Positions 12,445-35,690 of a DNA stretch of 42,847 nt are shown here, one piece after another. Source of the stretch: a virus. Lineage: Duplodnaviria > Heunggongvirae > Uroviricota > Caudoviricetes. The translations under genes were made by a program, and so were the position numbers. Location of the stretch: IMG/VR virus record IMGVR_UViG_3300045988_015629, one strand, 5' to 3'. The notes beneath the pieces are model-generated. The model was not told where the DNA came from. It ran no database searches and worked only from the letters and a program-made list of their open reading frames with translations. Numbering within the stretch: position 1 is the first letter of the stretch; each line of letters starts with the position of its first letter.

Positions 12445-12480
12445 GTGTAAATGAATAGTAGCTTATTCTATCTTAGTGTG
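12445..12480 (-). promoter_or_regulatory. conserved early-type promoter, divergent copy (TTGCAC-N17-TACTAT with embedded GAATAG dyad)
   Basis: Related to the 36-bp elements at 13744-13779 and 35655-35690. Confidence 0.45.
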
Positions 12481-13743: not shown

Positions 13744-13779
13744 AGTGAATAGTATCCTATTATGTTGGGGTGTGCAAGA
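13744..13779 (-). promoter_or_regulatory. conserved 36-bp early promoter element (minus-strand TTGCAC-N17-TACTAT; contains GAATAG-N4-CTATTA dyad)
   Basis: About 33/36 identical to 35655-35690 in the opposite orientation. Confidence 0.55.
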
Positions 13780-14644: not shown

Positions 14645-14773
14645 ATGACGAAGTTAATAGTTCCACAGCTACGCCGCCAGAAACACGGCGCTGATTTCTT
14701 CGCACCGGTAAAGATGAACCGCGCAATGCGCCGTATGCAGGAAGCCTTAGAACGTGCGGAGAAAAAGAAATGA
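14645..14773 (+). CDS. hypothetical small basic protein (42 aa)
   Basis: Hand-translated ORF whose stop overlaps the primase-helicase start. Confidence 0.3.
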   Translation: MTKLIVPQLRRQKHGADFFAPVKMNRAMRRMQEALERAEKKK

Positions 14774-17031
14774 ATATTGTTTTTGCAACGCTGCGTAACA
14801 CATTCGATAAAAACCCTGTAGCGCGTGAAATGCCGCTGGAGCAGTTCGTAGAGTATGTCTGTGATACATCGAAGCGTTTATCCGTGGACCCGTCGTGGAC
14901 TAAGGAAGAGTACGACGCCGCCAAGATTAAACAGAAAGCTATCGCACCTGTTGGTGGTCGCCGTAAGAACGCGATTCTGGAAGACAGTGTGGTTAAGTTC
15001 GACTTTGACCATCTCAACCGTACTCAGTACCGCAACCTGACACGCAAATTTAAGAATGCGCCGTTCTTCAACATTCTGCATACAACGGCGTCACACCGGC
15101 ACGCGTGCAAAAACGGGGATTACGCCTTCCGCGTTCTGGTTCCGGCTCGCACGCCGTTTAACTCTAACGATGCGTGGATGGTGCAACGTGCTATTTGTGC
15201 CGAGTTAGAAATAGACGAAGCATTGCGCGACCACTGCACGGAAGACGGCAATCGCCTTATCTACCTGCCGCATAAAGAGTCAAAGATAACGGTTACAGAA
15301 GGGCGGGTTATCCGTGCTGAGCGGTACATCAAGAAAGCCGAAGAGATGGGATTGCGTAAGCGTGAAGCTAAGACGCTTGCTGCCGATGAGCACGGGCTTA
15401 ACGCAGATATAGCCCATTTCTGCGAAGCTGAGTTAGGTCTTGACGCTCTATCTTCCGGCCGCGGGTACGAAGTGCCTTGCCCTAACGAACACCTGCACAC
15501 CGGAAAAGGTTCCACCAGCATTATGCTTGACGGTAAAGAAGTGCGCTTCGTGTGCCAGCACACAAACAACGGCGCTTGCACTGAACTTAACCGTCGACAA
15601 CATTTGGCCTTGCGTATGTGCGGACTGCCAGACGAGCTTAACGTAGACAAGCAACCTATCAGTATTAACAGCATTCGTGCGGCTTTGCCGGATTTACCGG
15701 ACGAAGAGATTGAGGAATTGCACCGCACAGAGAACGAAGAGCCTGTAACTTGCACGCTGGAAGACCTTGAAGACGAGCCGGAAGTAGAAAAAGAACCTGC
15801 TTACTCCGTCGTAGACGGCCTTATGCAGACTAATGAATCCTTCTACATTTGCGCAAAGTCCCACACTGGTAAGTCAACATTTAGTATGGCGATTGACGCC
15901 GCTATTGCCGCTGAAAAAAGATATGCGTTCGGCGGGGCTGAGGTCGCAGAAGGACATGCGTTCATTTTTGCGGGTGAAGGTGCGCAGTCGTTCGAGCGAC
16001 ATAAAAAGTCTTTGCAGATTGCCCTCGGGGATAGCCTGGACCGCTTGCACATTATCGATTGTGTCGCCGATGGGTGTAATTTACTTGATGAGGCGTGGCG
16101 CCGCCAGGCGGTGAGAATGATGCGCCGTGTTGCCGGTGAAGAGAAAATTGTAAAGGTTACGTTTGATACCCTACAAACTTGCATACCGGGCTTCGACGAA
16201 AACGATAACAGGTCGATGAAAGAAGCGGCGCAGGCGCTTAACGAAATAGCGGCAACGCTTAACGCTGCGGTCGGCGCTATGGTGCACCCGACTAAAAACA
16301 TCGACGAAACTGTGCCGTCTGAAAACGGCATGATGCCGAAGGGTGGAAGTGATTTTCACAACTCCATCGATAACGGGATGTTCCTGCATAAACCAGACAA
16401 CGACAATAACTTAGAGATAAACCTGTATCACATAAAGAACCGAAATGGAGAACGGCAGAAAGCCAGAGGATTCGTAATACAGAAGATTAAGATAGCGGAG
16501 CCGCCGGAAAAGAAAGAACCAACTCACAACTTCATGGGGCTTCCGGAAGGGTATAGCAGTGATGATGTGCGCGATTTTGACGCGGGAAATCCGCATATTG
16601 ATGTCTTTGTCAACTTCAACGCCTTCTCTGTCTTTGTGAAGAAAGTAGAAGGTATGACTGACGAACAGAAGGAAGCCGTTAAAGAAAAGGTAGGCCAGTT
16701 CGAGAAACTGGATTCCAAAGAGGCTACGGTTATTTACGCATTAGGTAAATTGCAGGAGCAAGGCGACGACAAGCGAGGGTTCTCTATGTCAGCTATCGTC
16801 AAAGCGGCGAAAGAAGATAGTTACGGCGTACCGATTAACGCTAATAACGACCTTCGAAAGAAACTGGAAGAGATGCACGAGGCGGGGGTTATCGTCTCTG
16901 GGCTGGATAACAACAACAGGCCCATCCCTAAGCAATACAGGTTGCCGTGGGGTATAAACGACAACAAAATTCCTAAGACAATATACGAACCGAATGAAAT
17001 GCTGACAGTGACAGAGGAGGATTTGGAATAG
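14770..17031 (+). CDS. DNA primase/helicase (zinc-binding primase-like N-terminal region plus RecA-like P-loop domain)
   Basis: Cys/His cluster CPNEHLH...CQHTNNGAC; Walker A AKSHTGKST; 753 aa at the head of the replication module. Confidence 0.65.
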   Translation: MNIVFATLRNTFDKNPVAREMPLEQFVEYVCDTSKRLSVDPSWTKEEYDAAKIKQKAIAPVGGRRKNAILEDSVVKFDFDHLNRTQYRNLTRKFKNAPFFNILHTTASHRHACKNGDYAFRVLVPARTPFNSNDAWMVQRAICAELEIDEALRDHCTEDGNRLIYLPHKESKITVTEGRVIRAERYIKKAEEMGLRKREAKTLAADEHGLNADIAHFCEAELGLDALSSGRGYEVPCPNEHLHTGKGSTSIMLDGKEVRFVCQHTNNGACTELNRRQHLALRMCGLPDELNVDKQPISINSIRAALPDLPDEEIEELHRTENEEPVTCTLEDLEDEPEVEKEPAYSVVDGLMQTNESFYICAKSHTGKSTFSMAIDAAIAAEKRYAFGGAEVAEGHAFIFAGEGAQSFERHKKSLQIALGDSLDRLHIIDCVADGCNLLDEAWRRQAVRMMRRVAGEEKIVKVTFDTLQTCIPGFDENDNRSMKEAAQALNEIAATLNAAVGAMVHPTKNIDETVPSENGMMPKGGSDFHNSIDNGMFLHKPDNDNNLEINLYHIKNRNGERQKARGFVIQKIKIAEPPEKKEPTHNFMGLPEGYSSDDVRDFDAGNPHIDVFVNFNAFSVFVKKVEGMTDEQKEAVKEKVGQFEKLDSKEATVIYALGKLQEQGDDKRGFSMSAIVKAAKEDSYGVPINANNDLRKKLEEMHEAGVIVSGLDNNNRPIPKQYRLPWGINDNKIPKTIYEPNEMLTVTEEDLE

Positions 17032-17037
17032 GTAAAA

Positions 17038-17064
17038 ATAAAGGGGCGTTAAGCCCCTTCACCC
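17038..17064. terminator. bidirectional terminator between the convergent primase-helicase and XRE genes
   Basis: AGGGGC-GTTA-GCCCCT hairpin with A-run upstream. Confidence 0.55.
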
Positions 17065-17264
17065 AACGCCAGCCACTTGGCGTCTACTTGCAGCACTTCC
17101 GCCAGTTTAAACAGCGTCGCTGGGCGGACGTCCTGAGTTACCCCAAGTGCCAGCTGGTTAATCGCGCCTTGGGAAACACCGGCCAGGACAGCCAGATGGC
17201 GCTGGGAGATACCGAGTTCTTTACGGCGTTGCTCTACACGGATACCTAGTTCAGATGGTTGCAT
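17049..17264 (-). CDS. XRE-family HTH transcriptional regulator (Cro/CI-like)
   Basis: LGISQRHLAVLAGVSQGAINQLALG is a canonical XRE helix-turn-helix; AAGGAG RBS; opposite strand to its neighbours. Confidence 0.75.
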   Translation of the reverse strand: MQPSELGIRVEQRRKELGISQRHLAVLAGVSQGAINQLALGVTQDVRPATLFKLAEVLQVDAKWLALGEGA

Positions 17265-17285: not shown

Positions 17286-17357
17286 TGATATGTGAATAGT
17301 ACCATATTAATTATTTTAGAAAAGCCCATTGACAAGTGAATAGTTCGCTATTATAGT
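17286..17357. promoter_or_regulatory. divergent promoter/operator region: plus-strand TTGACA-N17-TATAGT at 17329-17357 and two GAATAG-N4-(C/A)TATTA dyads
   Basis: Dyads at about 17294-17309 and 17338-17353. Confidence 0.55.
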
Positions 17358-17388
17358 TAGCCCATACCAAACGAGAGGAGAGAAACAA

Positions 17389-17910
17389 ATGTTAGAGAAA
17401 TTCTTGGTATTACTGGAACGTTTCGTAGTCGCCCACGAACTGATTGCTGCAAACAGTGTGAAACAACCGACTAGCAAATCTGTAGGTGAATTGACTGTTG
17501 ACGTCGCGGTAACTGGGGTAGAGACAGTTAAAAAAGAACTGGCTAAAGCACTTGAAGAAGTCGAGAAGGCGAAAGAAATCCCGGTTGAAGGTGAAGACAT
17601 CGTCGACACTAAACCAGCAGAAGAAGAGAAGCCGAAGCGCAAGCCGCGTAAGGACAAAGTAGAGGAACCAACGCCAGAGCCGGAAGAAGAGAAAGAAGAA
17701 GTCGATTACCAGTCTCTGCGCGACCAGATTCAGGCTATCGACGATGCGATTAACGAAGGCCCAAGCGATGCCGCGTGCGACGATTCTGACGAACTGCTGG
17801 AAGAGTTTACCGGTAAGAAGATGAAGATTGCAGCGATTAAAGACGAAGACCTGGCTGAGTATCTGGAGCGCCTGACAGCAATCAAGAACAAGTATTTCGA
17901 AGAAGAATAA
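17389..17910 (+). CDS. highly acidic protein (173 aa), function unknown
   Basis: E/D/K-rich low-complexity middle section, acidic C-terminal part. Confidence 0.5.
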   Translation: MLEKFLVLLERFVVAHELIAANSVKQPTSKSVGELTVDVAVTGVETVKKELAKALEEVEKAKEIPVEGEDIVDTKPAEEEKPKRKPRKDKVEEPTPEPEEEKEEVDYQSLRDQIQAIDDAINEGPSDAACDDSDELLEEFTGKKMKIAAIKDEDLAEYLERLTAIKNKYFEEE

Positions 17911-17911
17911 C

Positions 17912-17938
17912 TATCCCGCGGCCTTCGGGCCGCTTTAA
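17912..17938 (+). terminator. terminator-like hairpin after the acidic protein gene
   Basis: GCGGCC-TTCG-GGCCGC followed by TTTA. Confidence 0.4.
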
Positions 17939-17953
17939 CTGAGGGTCGGAATT

Positions 17954-18226
17954 ATGATTTACCAACTCTACCGCGCCGTAGACAGGCGGGATAGCACAGA
18001 GGCGCTATGGCTGTTACGTGCGCCGTCTGGCTCGCACCAGATGGAAGATATGGCGTACTTAGGCAAAGTGCCACGGCCTAAAGACATAGGCCGCCACGTG
18101 TCACATATTAAGCGCACGACTTTCGCCAAACCGGACTTTTACGTCTTCGAGTCGATGTATGGCTGGGCTATGCACTGCGACCATAAGACACGACATTTAA
18201 TTGACCAGTGGGAGAGCAGGGTATGA
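17954..18226 (+). CDS. hypothetical protein (90 aa)
   Basis: ORF whose stop overlaps the exonuclease start (ATGA). Confidence 0.45.
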   Translation: MIYQLYRAVDRRDSTEALWLLRAPSGSHQMEDMAYLGKVPRPKDIGRHVSHIKRTTFAKPDFYVFESMYGWAMHCDHKTRHLIDQWESRV

Positions 18227-19473
18227 TTTTAAAGGAACGCGGCGGCAATAACGATGTGCACGCCTTACTGTCGCCGTCTGGCGCTAAAAAGTGGCTGGCG
18301 TGCAGTGCATCACTGGCCTGTGAGAAAGATATTCCCAACACGTCTGGTAAAGCCGCCGTTACAGGGACTGCATGCCACACCATAGCGGAGATGCACCTTA
18401 ACCAGTACATCAAAGGCACTGCTCTGCCATTAGAGCGTGAAGTCGGCGCTTACGTGCTGGATGAAGGTAAAGGCCAGATTAAGGCGCTAATCAGCCCAAT
18501 GAAAGGCGCGGTACTGATTACGGCGGACATGATTGAGCAGGTGCGCAAGTACACCGACTACTGCAAAGCGATTATCGACGTAGCGACTTACGCCAAGCTG
18601 GAAATGCGAGTCAATCTTACTGAGGTATTGCATCCTGGGTATGAAGGTGTCGAGACGTTCGGAACGGCTGACCTCGTTGCTGTCCAGGAACTGGCGAACA
18701 CCGACGAGCACATGCTCATTATTGGCGACCTTAAAACTGGACGGCATCGTGTTGAAGCGAAAGAAAACAAGCAGCTTATGCTTTACGCTCTCGGTGTTTA
18801 TCGCCGACTCAAGAGACGTTATAACATCACAGTAGTGCGCCTGGTCATCTTCCAGCCGTACGCGGGGGGTGCGTCAGAGTGGGACATCTCGGTCGAAGGT
18901 CTGGAACTGTTCGCTAAGTTCGCACAGAAACGGGCACTGTTAGCGCTTGATGCTTATTTCCGTGGAAAGAAGAACCTGAAAGCGTCGGACTTTAAACCGT
19001 CGGTCGATGGTTGCCAGTGGTGCCGGTTCTCTGAACAGTGTGCCGCGCGTACAAAGACGGTTAATTCTGTACTGGCGGAAGAACTTGAAGACGACTTTGT
19101 GCTGGAACTGACGACGGAGCAACTCGTAGTTGAGTATGAGAAGTTGCCGCTGTTGCGCCAGCACATCGACAAGGTTGAGAAAGCGATGTCCGCCGCATTG
19201 CATTCCGGTAAGAAAGTGCCAGGGTACAAACTGGTAGAAGGCCGCCCGGGTAATCGTGCGTGGAAAGATGCCGATGCGATTGAAGTGTCACACGGCGACA
19301 TTCTCAAAAAAGAGGTATTGATGTCCCCTACGGAGGCAGCAAAAGTTCTTTCTGCGGATGAGATGGCAGCGCTTGAGCCGTTTATTACCCGTAAGCCAGG
19401 CGCACCATGTGTCGCAACGGCAGACGACAAACGTCCTGAGTGGAATCAGGTTAGTGAAGAAGATTTGGAATAA
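18223..19473 (+). CDS. PD-(D/E)XK exonuclease with C-terminal cysteine cluster (RecB/Cas4-like)
   Basis: GTADLVAV...IGDLKTG and QLMLYALG motifs plus C...CQWCRF..C; ATG at 18223 with GGAG RBS. Confidence 0.7.
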   Translation: MILKERGGNNDVHALLSPSGAKKWLACSASLACEKDIPNTSGKAAVTGTACHTIAEMHLNQYIKGTALPLEREVGAYVLDEGKGQIKALISPMKGAVLITADMIEQVRKYTDYCKAIIDVATYAKLEMRVNLTEVLHPGYEGVETFGTADLVAVQELANTDEHMLIIGDLKTGRHRVEAKENKQLMLYALGVYRRLKRRYNITVVRLVIFQPYAGGASEWDISVEGLELFAKFAQKRALLALDAYFRGKKNLKASDFKPSVDGCQWCRFSEQCAARTKTVNSVLAEELEDDFVLELTTEQLVVEYEKLPLLRQHIDKVEKAMSAALHSGKKVPGYKLVEGRPGNRAWKDADAIEVSHGDILKKEVLMSPTEAAKVLSADEMAALEPFITRKPGAPCVATADDKRPEWNQVSEEDLE

Positions 19474-19477
19474 AGTG

Positions 19478-19506
19478 TTGACACCCGAATAGTTAGCTAT
19501 TATAGT
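19478..19506 (+). promoter_or_regulatory. conserved promoter TTGACA-N17-TATAGT with embedded GAATAG-N4-CTATTA dyad
   Basis: About 25/29 identical to the 17329-17357 promoter. Confidence 0.55.
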
Positions 19507-19559: not shown

Positions 19560-20186
19560 ATGGGTATTAAACTGAATCTGCGTAAAGTAAACACTGCATG
19601 GGTTAACGTATTCGAACGCGAAAAAGACCGTGAAAACGATGATGGCTCAATCACTAAAGGCCAGTACAGCGCGACTATCATCCTGCCGTCTGACCACGCA
19701 CAAATCGACGCGCTCTACGACACCGTTTACGCTGTGGTTGAAGATGCGTTGGGCGCAGCTGCCGCTGAGAAGTGGATGAAGTCCAACTACGGCGAAGGTA
19801 AGCACATGGATAAATGTGCGATTAAAGACATTGCCGAGCGCGACAATCCGTTTGAAGACTTCCCGGAAGGCTTCTACTTCAAGGCGAAGGCACAGAAACA
19901 GCCACTGATTGTAACCTCTAAAAAAGGCGAGACTCAGGTAGAACAGGACTTCAATGTAGACGGCGAACAGATTGAAGGTGAACAGGTTTACAGCGGCTGC
20001 GTCGCTAACGTAAGCGTTGAAATCTGGTTCAGCCAGAAATACAAAGTCCTCGGCGTTAACCTGCTGGCTATTAAATACGTTGGTGAAGGTAAAGCGTTTG
20101 GCGGTTCTAAAGTAGCCGCAAGCGTCGATGACCTTGAAGACGATGAAGAGGATGAAGCACCGCGCCGCGAACGTCGTCGCCGTTAA
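19560..20186 (+). CDS. putative single-stranded DNA-binding protein
   Basis: 208 aa with an acidic C-terminal tail (DDLEDDEEDE) between the exonuclease and polymerase genes; call from context, not motif. Confidence 0.4.
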   Translation: MGIKLNLRKVNTAWVNVFEREKDRENDDGSITKGQYSATIILPSDHAQIDALYDTVYAVVEDALGAAAAEKWMKSNYGEGKHMDKCAIKDIAERDNPFEDFPEGFYFKAKAQKQPLIVTSKKGETQVEQDFNVDGEQIEGEQVYSGCVANVSVEIWFSQKYKVLGVNLLAIKYVGEGKAFGGSKVAASVDDLEDDEEDEAPRRERRRR

Positions 20187-20245: not shown

Positions 20246-22426
20246 ATGAGTTACCTGTTCTTAGACTTTGAAACATTCTCCGAAGCCGATTTGAAGAAAG
20301 TTGGTTCCTACGCTTACGCTGAGCATCCAACTACCGAAGTCCTTATTTGTACATATGCTTTTGACGACGAGCCTGTGCGGGTATGGGATTGCACAGACGG
20401 CAGCGACATGCCGGGGGATTTGCACCGCGCGTTACGCCGTCTGGTGAAACCAAATAGTCGCATTAAGATGGTATGGCACAACGGCTCAATGTTCGACAGG
20501 CTCATCATGAAACACTGCTGGGGCTTTGATATTCCCGTAAGCAACACCATTGATACGATGATTTGGGCGTTTCGTCACGCGCTGCCGGGCTCACTTGATG
20601 CGCTGTGTGAAGTGCTTGGCGTGTCTGCTGACAATGCAAAAGATAAACGCGGCAAGGCGCTGATTCAGCGTTTCTCTAAACCGACACCGAAGAATTACAA
20701 AATCCGCCGCTACACCGCAGAAACACACCCGGACGAGTGGGCGCTGTTCATCAAGTACGCCGTGAGCGACATCACTGCGATGCGTGAAGTCTTCCATAAG
20801 CTGCCGCGTTGGGGTAACTCTGAGTTCGAAGACCGTGTACTGGAACTGGACCAGTTAATCAACGACCGCGGGTTTAAGGTTGACGTTGCACTGGCGGAAG
20901 CCGCTATTGAAGCCGTGGAGAAACACAAAGCGCAGTTACAGGAGGAAGCCCAACGCAAATACGGCGGCTCGCTTACTGGTAAGGACTTTCTGCCGATTCT
21001 TCGTGAACTCGCCCCTGCACACCGCATACACAACGCACAGAAGTCGACGCTTAACGACCTGCTGGCGGACGATGATTTACCGGACGACGCACGCACAATT
21101 ATCGAAATGCGCCTCGGGGCCGCGTCCACCGCGTCAACGAAATATAACCCGCTGCTGTTGGGCCGCTCGTCTGACGACCGACGCCGTGGTTGCATACAAT
21201 ATGGTGGAGCTAAGCGTACGTTACGGTTTGCAGGTAAAGGCTTCCAGCCGCAGAACCTCGCGCGCGGGTACTATCACGATGATGAACTGGATAAAGGAAT
21301 TTCTGCGTTACTTAAGGGCCGCGCTCATCGTCGATTTGACGTAGCCAAGCTAACGGCATCTACCGTTCGTAGCTGCATCATACCGGAAACTGGACATAAG
21401 TTTGTCGTTGCCGATTACTCTAACGTCGAAGGCCGCGGGCTTGCGTGGCTGGCGGGGGAAGAAACCGCGCTAGATACGTTCCGTGCCGGACTGGATATTT
21501 ACTGCGTAACCGCGGGTAAGATGTTCGGTATGGAGCCGGATTACATTAAGAAAGAACGTAAAGATTTGCGCCAGATTGGTAAGGCCTGCGAACTTGGGCT
21601 TGGCTATGCGGGCGGTGTCGGCGCATTCGTACAGTTCGCCAAGAACCTTGGCCTTGACCTGGTTGATATGGCAAAAACAATGGATGGGACTTTCCCCGAC
21701 CACATCTGGGCCGCTACCGCACGTGGATATGAGTGGGCGCGTATTCAGGAAACCAAGCGACCACCACGTCCAGGTGAAAAGGATGACCGACCATCATATA
21801 TTCTTGATAAGAAAGTGTGGCGTACCTGTGACGCTATCAAGCGCATGTGGCGCGAGTCTCACCCGGAAACAGTAGCTTTCTGGCGAGATATTGAAGATGC
21901 AGCTATGGCGGCTATCCGCAACCCAGGTAAAGAGTTCACCGCAGGGCCGCGGGGCGTTAAGTTTTCGCGTAACGTAGAAACGGACAACAACGGCAACAAA
22001 GTCGCCGGTTGGTGGTTGCGGATGACGTTGCCGTCGGGCCGCGTTATGTCTTATCCGGGTGTTGGGCTAAGCGTGTCGAAAGAGACAGACGAAGACGGGA
22101 AGGTGTCTACCAACGTGCGCATCAAGTACCAGGGCGAAAACCAGTTAACCCGTCAGTGGGGCTTCCAGTACACCTACTCTGGTAAACTGGTGGAAAACTG
22201 CACTCAGGCGCTGTGCCGTGATTTGTTGGCTAATGCACTGCTGAACGTCGAAGCAAACGGCTACCCGATTGTTCTTCACGTACACGATGAGATTATCTGC
22301 GAGACACCAGATTTACCGGAATACAATGTAGATGAACTGGAGAAATTAATGTGTGCGTTGCCTGAGTGGGCAGAAGGCTTCCCTCTTGTAGCAGAAGGTG
22401 CGGAGATGAAGCGTTATGCCAAGTAA
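20246..22426 (+). CDS. DNA polymerase, family A, with 3'-5' exonuclease domain
   Basis: Exo motif FLDFETFS, motif A DYSNVEGRG, motif B RQIGKACELGLGYAGG, motif C VHDEI. Confidence 0.9.
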   Translation: MSYLFLDFETFSEADLKKVGSYAYAEHPTTEVLICTYAFDDEPVRVWDCTDGSDMPGDLHRALRRLVKPNSRIKMVWHNGSMFDRLIMKHCWGFDIPVSNTIDTMIWAFRHALPGSLDALCEVLGVSADNAKDKRGKALIQRFSKPTPKNYKIRRYTAETHPDEWALFIKYAVSDITAMREVFHKLPRWGNSEFEDRVLELDQLINDRGFKVDVALAEAAIEAVEKHKAQLQEEAQRKYGGSLTGKDFLPILRELAPAHRIHNAQKSTLNDLLADDDLPDDARTIIEMRLGAASTASTKYNPLLLGRSSDDRRRGCIQYGGAKRTLRFAGKGFQPQNLARGYYHDDELDKGISALLKGRAHRRFDVAKLTASTVRSCIIPETGHKFVVADYSNVEGRGLAWLAGEETALDTFRAGLDIYCVTAGKMFGMEPDYIKKERKDLRQIGKACELGLGYAGGVGAFVQFAKNLGLDLVDMAKTMDGTFPDHIWAATARGYEWARIQETKRPPRPGEKDDRPSYILDKKVWRTCDAIKRMWRESHPETVAFWRDIEDAAMAAIRNPGKEFTAGPRGVKFSRNVETDNNGNKVAGWWLRMTLPSGRVMSYPGVGLSVSKETDEDGKVSTNVRIKYQGENQLTRQWGFQYTYSGKLVENCTQALCRDLLANALLNVEANGYPIVLHVHDEIICETPDLPEYNVDELEKLMCALPEWAEGFPLVAEGAEMKRYAK

Positions 22427-22628: not shown

Positions 22629-22916
22629 ATGAGTACGCCTGAGGGGCGCGTGCAGAAATACGCAAAAGAGCGATTCGAGGCCCTGGGAGGCCTCGTACGC
22701 AAATTGTCGTACGAAAATAGAGCGGGCGCCCCCGACCTGCTGGTAATTCTCCCTGGTGGCATCATCTGGTTCGTCGAGGTTAAGAAAGACGAAAACACGA
22801 AGCCGGACCCGCACCAGTTACGAGAGCACGAGCGGATGCGTAAACGTGGTGCAAATGTTTTTGTCGTTGGTTCGTTTAAACAGGTTGACGACCTAATAGC
22901 GGGCTATTATAGTTAA
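22629..22916 (+). CDS. VRR-NUC domain nuclease
   Basis: PDLLVIL...WFVEVKKD PD-(D/E)XK arrangement typical of VRR-NUC; 95 aa. Confidence 0.65.
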   Translation: MSTPEGRVQKYAKERFEALGGLVRKLSYENRAGAPDLLVILPGGIIWFVEVKKDENTKPDPHQLREHERMRKRGANVFVVGSFKQVDDLIAGYYS

Positions 22917-35647: not shown

Positions 35648-35690
35648 TTGCACACCCCAATATAATAGGGTACTATTCACTTACACCAAC
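35648..35690. promoter_or_regulatory. conserved 36-bp promoter element, divergent (plus-strand TTGCAC-N17-TACTAT for the island; minus-strand promoter for the chaperone/tape-measure operon)
   Basis: Reverse complement is about 33/36 identical to 13744-13779. Confidence 0.55.

Follow-up and report, generated by a model that had tools for sequence, protein, structure and literature searches.

What does a strongly acidic protein do at the head of a phage replication operon? The question is raised by an open reading frame (ORF) at positions 17389-17910 of IMG/VR record IMGVR_UViG_3300045988_015629, a 42,847-nucleotide sequence of the class Caudoviricetes that is referred to here, over its whole length, as the window. 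A preliminary description of the locus had suggested either a DNA-mimic anti-restriction or anti-defence factor or, in second place, an acidic replisome accessory factor. Our analysis speaks against the former, whereas gene context and co-variation favour the latter: the gene appears to be a previously unremarked 'fourth gene' preceding the DUF2800 exonuclease, the gp2.5-like SSB/annealase (SSB, a protein that binds single-stranded DNA) and the family A DNA polymerase (PolA). We tentatively read its product as a module-intrinsic adaptor or mediator subunit, a reading that may well prove wrong.

The acidic gene and its genomic context

The 173-residue ORF is a real gene with an ATG start, as had been described. 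The window is a K1G-like Kagunavirus genome: over the 1.4 kb surrounding the ORF, it shares 95-98% identity with Escherichia phages K1G and K1H and with related Kagunavirus genomes (Guernseyvirinae). The protein itself is 100% identical to K1G ORF38 (gp42), annotated in K1G only as 'hypothetical protein', and its orthologue in Kagunavirus K1B4 is K1B4_003. It matches the profile of phrog_3127, a family annotated as of unknown function, from end to end (E = 6.4e-70), residues 1-173 aligning with positions 1-177 of the 178 in the profile.

17389-17910, + strand: coding sequence of the 173-aa acidic protein (K1G ORF38 / phrog_3127), ATG at 17389, stop codon at 17908-17910

Homologues are present in 484 phage records and, when proteins are grouped at 90% identity, in 2406 clusters; an exhaustive scan of 1.8 billion representative proteins returned only 27 clusters at 50% identity. 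Closely related DUF2800 records number ~450-500, similar to the 484 records with the acidic gene, which is a core gene. Downstream of it in the window lie the components of duf2800-gp2.5-polA, a recognised module (PMC8093625), and upstream lies a divergent helix-turn-helix (HTH) gene.

17049-17264, - strand: 71-aa Cro/CI-type HTH regulator, divergent (Pfam HTH_3, E = 1e-11), constant in position in all related loci
17954-18226, + strand: 90-aa ORF of unknown function (phrog_4965), flanked by the acidic and exonuclease genes, from the ORF list and a PHROG match
18208-19473, + strand: DUF2800 / PD-(D/E)XK exonuclease (Pfam DUF2800, E = 1e-68; phrog_69, E = 4e-121)
19560-20186, + strand: gp2.5-like (Enc34-type, DUF2815) SSB/annealase (Pfam Enc34_ssDNA-bd, phrog_112)
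20246-22426, + strand: family A DNA polymerase (PolA), an ORF annotated as DNA polymerase in K1G

Synteny was surveyed in 65 fetched loci (IMG/VR plus three phage records) in which all three genes were found. In all 65, the acidic gene lies on the same strand as DUF2800 and immediately upstream of it, small inserts being allowed, ahead of the SSB and PolA and, wherever an HTH gene was detected, downstream of that gene. The layout is repeated in Shemara, phiEap-2 and 37P2, from three annotated genera. PolA is 62-73% identical in the other related genera and 31% identical in the outlier locus L073, in which the acidic protein is represented by a 294-aa protein with a different C-terminus that shares only the N-terminal helix (N-helix) and that returned only itself in a homology search. 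Its gene nevertheless directly precedes those of DUF2800 and the gp2.5-like SSB, with PolA and an unrelated helicase on the other strand.

Several features of the neighbouring genes were recorded alongside. Only some relatives have the 90-aa ORF, which shares 19 nt with DUF2800 at the latter's GTG start. Around residues 268-278 the DUF2800 nuclease carries a C-x2-C-x5-C motif (CQWCRFSEQC) with further cysteines upstream, an arrangement reminiscent of the Fe-S cluster signature in RecB-family nucleases of the Cas4/AddB type. HNH homing endonuclease genes flank DUF2800 in Shemara (L001, 5196-5702 and 6948-7475), and one stands ahead of the acidic gene in phiEap-2 (L002, 3393-3881).

Composition and architecture of the acidic protein

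The preliminary description of an acidic, low-complexity protein rich in E, D and K with an acidic tail stands as far as acidity is concerned; low complexity is limited to the middle third, and the tail amounts to a terminal EEE. Glutamate accounts for 19.1% of residues, aspartate for 8.1%, lysine for 12.1% and arginine for 2.9%, so that K+R reach 15% and charged residues together 42%, with a net charge of -21 and an isoelectric point of 4.49. This makes it a mixed-charge polyampholyte rather than a pure polyanion.

An AlphaFold2 model built on a 17-sequence alignment, together with mean pairwise identities of regions among 65 unique homologues, resolves the following parts (pLDDT, predicted local distance difference test):

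17389-17457 (aa 1-23), + strand: near-invariant, predicted amphipathic N-terminal helix, MLEKFLVLLERFVVAHELIAANS (helix 2-23, pLDDT ~76; identity 0.85)
17458-17571 (aa 24-61), + strand: hypervariable segment of 12-43 residues (identity 0.16; low-confidence helix 39-61, pLDDT 50-66)
17572-17706 (aa 62-106), + strand: disordered mixed-charge linker (pLDDT <50; identity 0.55)
17575-17616 (aa 63-76), + strand: linker motif EIPVEGEDIVDTKP (E[IL]PVEGEDxxDTKP), conserved across genera
17623-17658 (aa 79-90), + strand: linker basic patch EEKPKRKPRKDK (EEKPKRKPR), conserved across genera
17707-17898 (aa 107-170), + strand: acidic three-helix C-domain (helices 107-123, 127-141 and 152-170, pLDDT ~90; identity 0.64)
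17899-17907, + strand: C-terminal EEE, with KYF just before it

About 45-80 residues of the protein are disordered. The C-domain has a net charge of about -11 and occurs in duplicate in relatives P0134 and P0147, which suggests that it is an independent binding module. An aromatic-plus-acidic C-terminus is kept in the family, with endings such as KYYEIEE, EFYDAE and YFELED.

The first 23 codons, invariant at the protein level, differ in their third letters, with a serine switch between AGT and TCT among the changes; selection therefore acts on the protein, and the same variation rules out an overlapping DNA or RNA element as the cause of N-terminal conservation. A TonB-like N-terminal membrane anchor was likewise ruled out, the N-helix carrying six charged or ionisable residues. 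In loci where only the N-terminus matched, the N-helix is 56-92% identical. The helicase-primase of Kagunavirus and Jerseyvirus (14770-17031, + strand, in the window) shares only ~29% identity with its counterpart in the other related genera (L001-L003, L052-L072), and since the N-helix is so strongly kept, this enzyme is an unlikely partner for it. In those genera the helicase-primase gene also has the opposite orientation relative to the HTH gene and the exonuclease operon, a pattern suggesting that it was replaced or inverted within the subfamily.

Co-variation with the SSB tail

The main positive hint of electrostatic pairing comes from the C-terminal tail of the SSB. In the window, the last 26 codons of the SSB gene (~20106-20183) encode DDLEDDEEDEAPRRERRRR, where the canonical tail is acidic and closes with a hydrophobic residue. 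In related genera the SSB tail reaches up to 84 residues, with acidic and Arg-rich blocks alternating. Phages encoding a phrog_3127-type protein have tails with Arg-rich blocks and an RRRR end (basic fraction 0.25-0.34), whereas all other phages examined have the canonical, purely acidic tail with a hydrophobic last residue (basic fraction 0-0.10). The SSB tail of the outlier L073 is rich in Q/P (0.53) with almost no charge, and the linker of the protein encoded upstream has very little charge and a Q/P fraction of 0.20, the joint highest. Within the family, C-domain charge and the number of basic residues in the SSB tail shift together, from about -11 with 7, through -15 with 15, to -20 with 21 (Spearman coefficient -0.45, n = 64, calculated without phylogenetic correction). 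This co-variation hints that the acidic protein and the SSB tail pair electrostatically.

Distribution beyond the subfamily

The family extends to more distant phages, in the same genomic slot. Serratia phage Scapp gp055 matches phrog_3127 (E = 2e-11) directly upstream of DUF2800. A homologue in Dhillonvirus mckay occupies this position as well, split between record ends (L077:7294-7444 and L075:1-285), and it is unannotated because the record ends cut the gene in two. Another gene of this phage, mckay_62 (L077:6561-6890), annotated as 'DNA recombination nuclease inhibitor gamma', was considered as a Gam protein and rejected, its product being an HTH protein instead (Pfam HTH_23, Sigma70_r4_2). 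When a hidden Markov model (HMM) of the C-domain was searched against 839 six-frame ORFs of distant loci, its matches were the very ORFs that immediately precede DUF2800, with E = 1.9e-4 in Streptococcus phage Javan186 and E = 2.9e-4 in Paenibacillus phage BarryFoster; the Paenibacillus homologue keeps the basic patch as EEKPKRQKK. Homology of the C-domain is significant in Scapp, mckay, Javan186 and BarryFoster. That the domain is kept across phages of Gram-positive and Gram-negative hosts argues for a partner within the phage module and against a host-specific defence target.

In Chi-like phages, Pseudomonas phage SS2019XI and Caulobacter phage RW, the slot upstream of DUF2800 is filled by uncharacterised proteins of phrog_7721 and phrog_408. 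An AlphaFold model of the Chi-like analogue has an N-helix, a disordered linker and a three-helix C-domain, the same predicted architecture as that of the acidic protein, and the two share matches in BFVD (eiAU Gp46, Saba and ctRPH1). Their best hhalign match, which is not significant, falls on the same LLxxF.V..h..L motif. An iterated HMM gave E-values of 0.12-4.9 on the Chi-like, Pseudomonas and Caulobacter proteins, none of them significant and the best (0.12) for Caulobacter RW gp052. Unlike the acidic protein, these analogues have mildly basic linkers rich in Gly, Ala, Ser and Thr, and their SSBs keep the canonical acidic tail.

Comparison with known proteins

Sequence and profile searches of Pfam, NCBIfam, PADLOC and PDB with the acidic protein returned nothing above threshold. 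Foldseek against PDB yielded only generic three-helix bundles (de novo designs and the Hsp70 lid), all at E of at least 1, and no DNA-mimic structure stood among the best 50 of 86 fold matches. Against BFVD, only uncharacterised phage proteins were matched, the best being the '13.88 kDa late protein' of Salmonella phage MB78, which explains why many homologues bear this odd label. The protein thus appears, from these searches, to have no characterised relative. Family members and positional analogues carry further misleading names: the low-complexity Pro/Glu/Lys linker is the probable source of 'TonB' and 'TolA', and both '13.88 kDa late protein' and 'RecT protein' look like annotation transfer.

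Among the closest analogies are the lambda Red-beta C-terminal domain and lambda Orf, mediators built as three-helix bundles whose binding partners are lambda Exo and the tail of the host SSB (PMC6393309). Like these, the acidic protein is predicted to contain a small three-helix bundle, generic as a fold class, and is encoded in an exonuclease-plus-annealase operon; the role proposed for it, coupling of nuclease, annealase/SSB and replisome, would also be the same. It differs from the Red-beta domain in being a separate polypeptide and not part of the annealase, and the annealase of the present module is of the gp2.5/OB-fold type, not of the RecT/Rad52 type. Homology with Red-beta had been considered because of the UniRef label 'RecT protein' on the Chi-like analogues and a motif noticed by eye. 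The hhalign comparison with lambda Beta found nothing (probability 0.2% for the alignment of the acidic family; the Chi-like alignment was also without a match), and Red-beta was absent from the best 50 of 86 PDB fold matches. Only the analogy is therefore retained.

T7 gp2.5, T7 gp4 and Escherichia coli SSB end in acidic C-terminal tails. The acidic protein resembles them in having an acidic C-terminus near an aromatic residue and in belonging to a module with a gp2.5-like SSB. In contrast to these tails, its aromatic residue lies 4 positions from the end (KYFEEE) and is not terminal, its acidic tail sits on a folded bundle of a separate protein, and the canonical tip of the cognate phage SSB is replaced by RRERRRR. 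The tails of the Chi-like positional analogues are nearly identical to those of their own SSBs (EEDDV versus EDDDV; GEGEDL versus GDDDL).

Promoters and putative operators

The promoter TTGACA-N17-TATAGT, described earlier as preceding the acidic gene, was found there together with two further copies in the window. The features around the gene are as follows:

17329-17357, + strand: sigma-70-type promoter TTGACA-N17-TATAGT of the acidic gene (exact match; 11 of 12 consensus positions)
17339-17352, no strand: palindrome AATAG-N4-CTATT in the promoter spacer, a putative operator
17376-17380, + strand: Shine-Dalgarno sequence AGGAG, 8 nt ahead of the ATG
17918-17933, + strand: GC-rich hairpin GCGGCC-UUCG-GGCCGC followed by UUUAA, just past the stop codon

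The promoter occurs at 17329 and 19478 (both exact) and at 22885 (one mismatch), compared with 0.14 copies expected by chance. Allowing at most one mismatch, the palindrome occurs 12 times against an expectation of 1.06; sites include 17339-17352, 19488-19501, 22895-22908, 13748-13761 and 35664-35677, with near-matches at 17295, 12454 and others. It is present in all three TTGACA-N17-TATAGT promoters, and every site lies within or beside promoter hexamers. Taken together, the copies look like a genome-wide operator set of the divergent 71-aa HTH protein. A second promoter class, TTGCAC-N17-TACTAT, was noted at 12454 (-), 13748 (-) and 35664 (+); its spacers are near-identical (ACCCCAAyATAATAGGr), the palindrome overlaps its -10 element, and its members drive other early-gene blocks.

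The hairpin past the stop codon is missing in Shemara and, in a 66-nt context, is no more stable than shuffled sequences (z = -0.45). Since it is neither conserved nor more stable than shuffles, a terminator is not claimed; the hairpin could be a weak attenuator or an RNA-stabilising element.

Proposed function and competing explanations

As a module-intrinsic adaptor or mediator, the acidic protein, a core product of the operon that is probably well expressed, would act as a flexible tether made of an N-terminal helix for docking, a disordered linker that evolves fast but holds two short conserved motifs, and a C-domain with an aromatic-acidic tail. The C-domain would dock electrostatically on a module partner, the best candidates being the SSB, at its Arg-rich C-terminal tail, and the adjacent exonuclease. 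A second and very conserved partner, possibly from the replisome or repair machinery of the host, would be bound by the N-helix. Acting together, the two contacts would couple end resection, coating and annealing of single-stranded DNA, and polymerase action. These binding partners, and the function as such, are what we infer. A bolder version, which we regard as speculative and unlikely, is that the acidic protein and the acidic/Arg-rich SSB tail form a matched, oppositely patterned disordered pair whose multivalent electrostatic association, possibly a coacervate-like condensate, would organise a replication-recombination compartment in small siphoviruses. In that version, the acidic protein would supply the lost aromatic-acidic 'SSB tip' in trans, the N-helix would link the assembly to a conserved host replisome protein, and phages of Gram-negative and Gram-positive hosts would widely share this unit as a fourth, so far unrecognised part of the module.

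Several observations weigh against the adaptor. The co-variation rests on ~5-7 independent lineages without phylogenetic correction, lineage L058 breaks the charge trend, and shared composition of the disordered regions could reflect a lineage-wide mutational bias instead of interaction. The comparison with the Chi-like analogues is not significant (hhalign E = 0.043, probability 1%), the PDB fold matches are generic and poor, and the profile comparison with lambda Red-beta gave no match. Adjacency of the genes, moreover, is equally compatible with an inhibitor of host nucleases, like lambda gam beside bet and exo.

Such an inhibitor, an analogue of lambda Gam, T7 gp5.9 or P22 Abc2 that blocks RecBCD and shields the ends of replicating, headful-packaged linear DNA, is in our judgement unlikely, yet it stays live because of the gam-bet-exo-like layout and of variable sensitivity to Old, the P2 protein that senses RecBCD inhibition (Spi phenotype). 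The acidic gene heads an exonuclease-plus-annealase operon, its product is acidic and helical, the K1G annotation shows no other Gam-like gene, and the near-invariant N-helix could target a conserved host protein. Sensitivity to Old does vary among Kagunaviruses (PMC11990801), but it cannot be attributed to the acidic gene. The protein resembles Gam, gp5.9 and Abc2 neither in sequence nor in fold; C-domain homologues fill the same slot in phages of Firmicutes, whose cells use AddAB and not RecBCD; and the 'nuclease inhibitor gamma' of the related Dhillonvirus module is the mis-annotated HTH protein described above. A role in host takeover or transcription, with the N-helix binding the host's RNA polymerase, one of its nucleoid proteins or a chaperone, much as T7 Gp2 or Gp5.5 would, strikes us as improbable. 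Being the first gene after a consensus sigma-70 promoter with a putative operator, in a phage that lacks its own RNA polymerase and therefore needs regulators, would suit this role, as would an N-helix conserved beyond any phage replication protein, even in the divergent L073. However, linkage to DUF2800 and the SSB survives changes in the remaining genome architecture, no similarity to known phage proteins that bind RNA polymerase was found, and the MB78 homologue is labelled a 'late protein'.

The DNA-mimic anti-restriction or other anti-defence protein put forward in the preliminary description is, on the present evidence, very improbable. Known DNA mimics are compact, rigid and poor in basic residues. 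The acidic protein shares with Ocr, ArdA, Arn, Gam and gp5.9 a small size, helical content and a strongly negative net charge (-21, of which about -11 in the C-domain), and the strength of its early-type promoter and of its ribosome-binding site would fit such a function. Unlike them, it combines 15% Lys and Arg with a long disordered linker, has no sequence or structural similarity to them, and matches neither a DNA-mimic family in Pfam nor any entry in PADLOC or PDB; the predicted structure, with its disordered linker and three-helix C-domain, had no DNA-mimic fold among its best 50 of 86 PDB matches. Anti-defence genes typically lie in variable accessory islands, whereas this is a core replication-module gene in fixed synteny across host phyla. 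The phage group is itself sensitive to restriction-modification (RM): Kagunavirus isolates of the BASEL study 'display a high sensitivity to RM systems' (PMC11990801), and the BASEL isolate Bas72 has the acidic gene, an argument that is indirect in that it comes from literature at the level of the group.

Significance for the phage module

One caution follows for annotation at large, namely that an acidic early phage protein need not be a DNA mimic. Few replication-recombination cassettes of tailed phages are as widespread as duf2800-gp2.5-polA, whose carriers include therapy-relevant Kagunavirus, Jerseyvirus, Dhillonvirus and Chi-like phages, yet its annotation consists of three genes and some 'hypothetical proteins'. 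If the acidic protein is indeed an adaptor linking the exonuclease, the SSB/annealase and a host factor, this would explain how a gp2.5-type SSB without the canonical acidic tip is integrated into the replisome. It would also provide a missing component for recombineering tools based on the module, and the misleading labels '13.88 kDa late protein', 'TonB', 'TolA' and 'RecT' would be replaced in hundreds of genomes.

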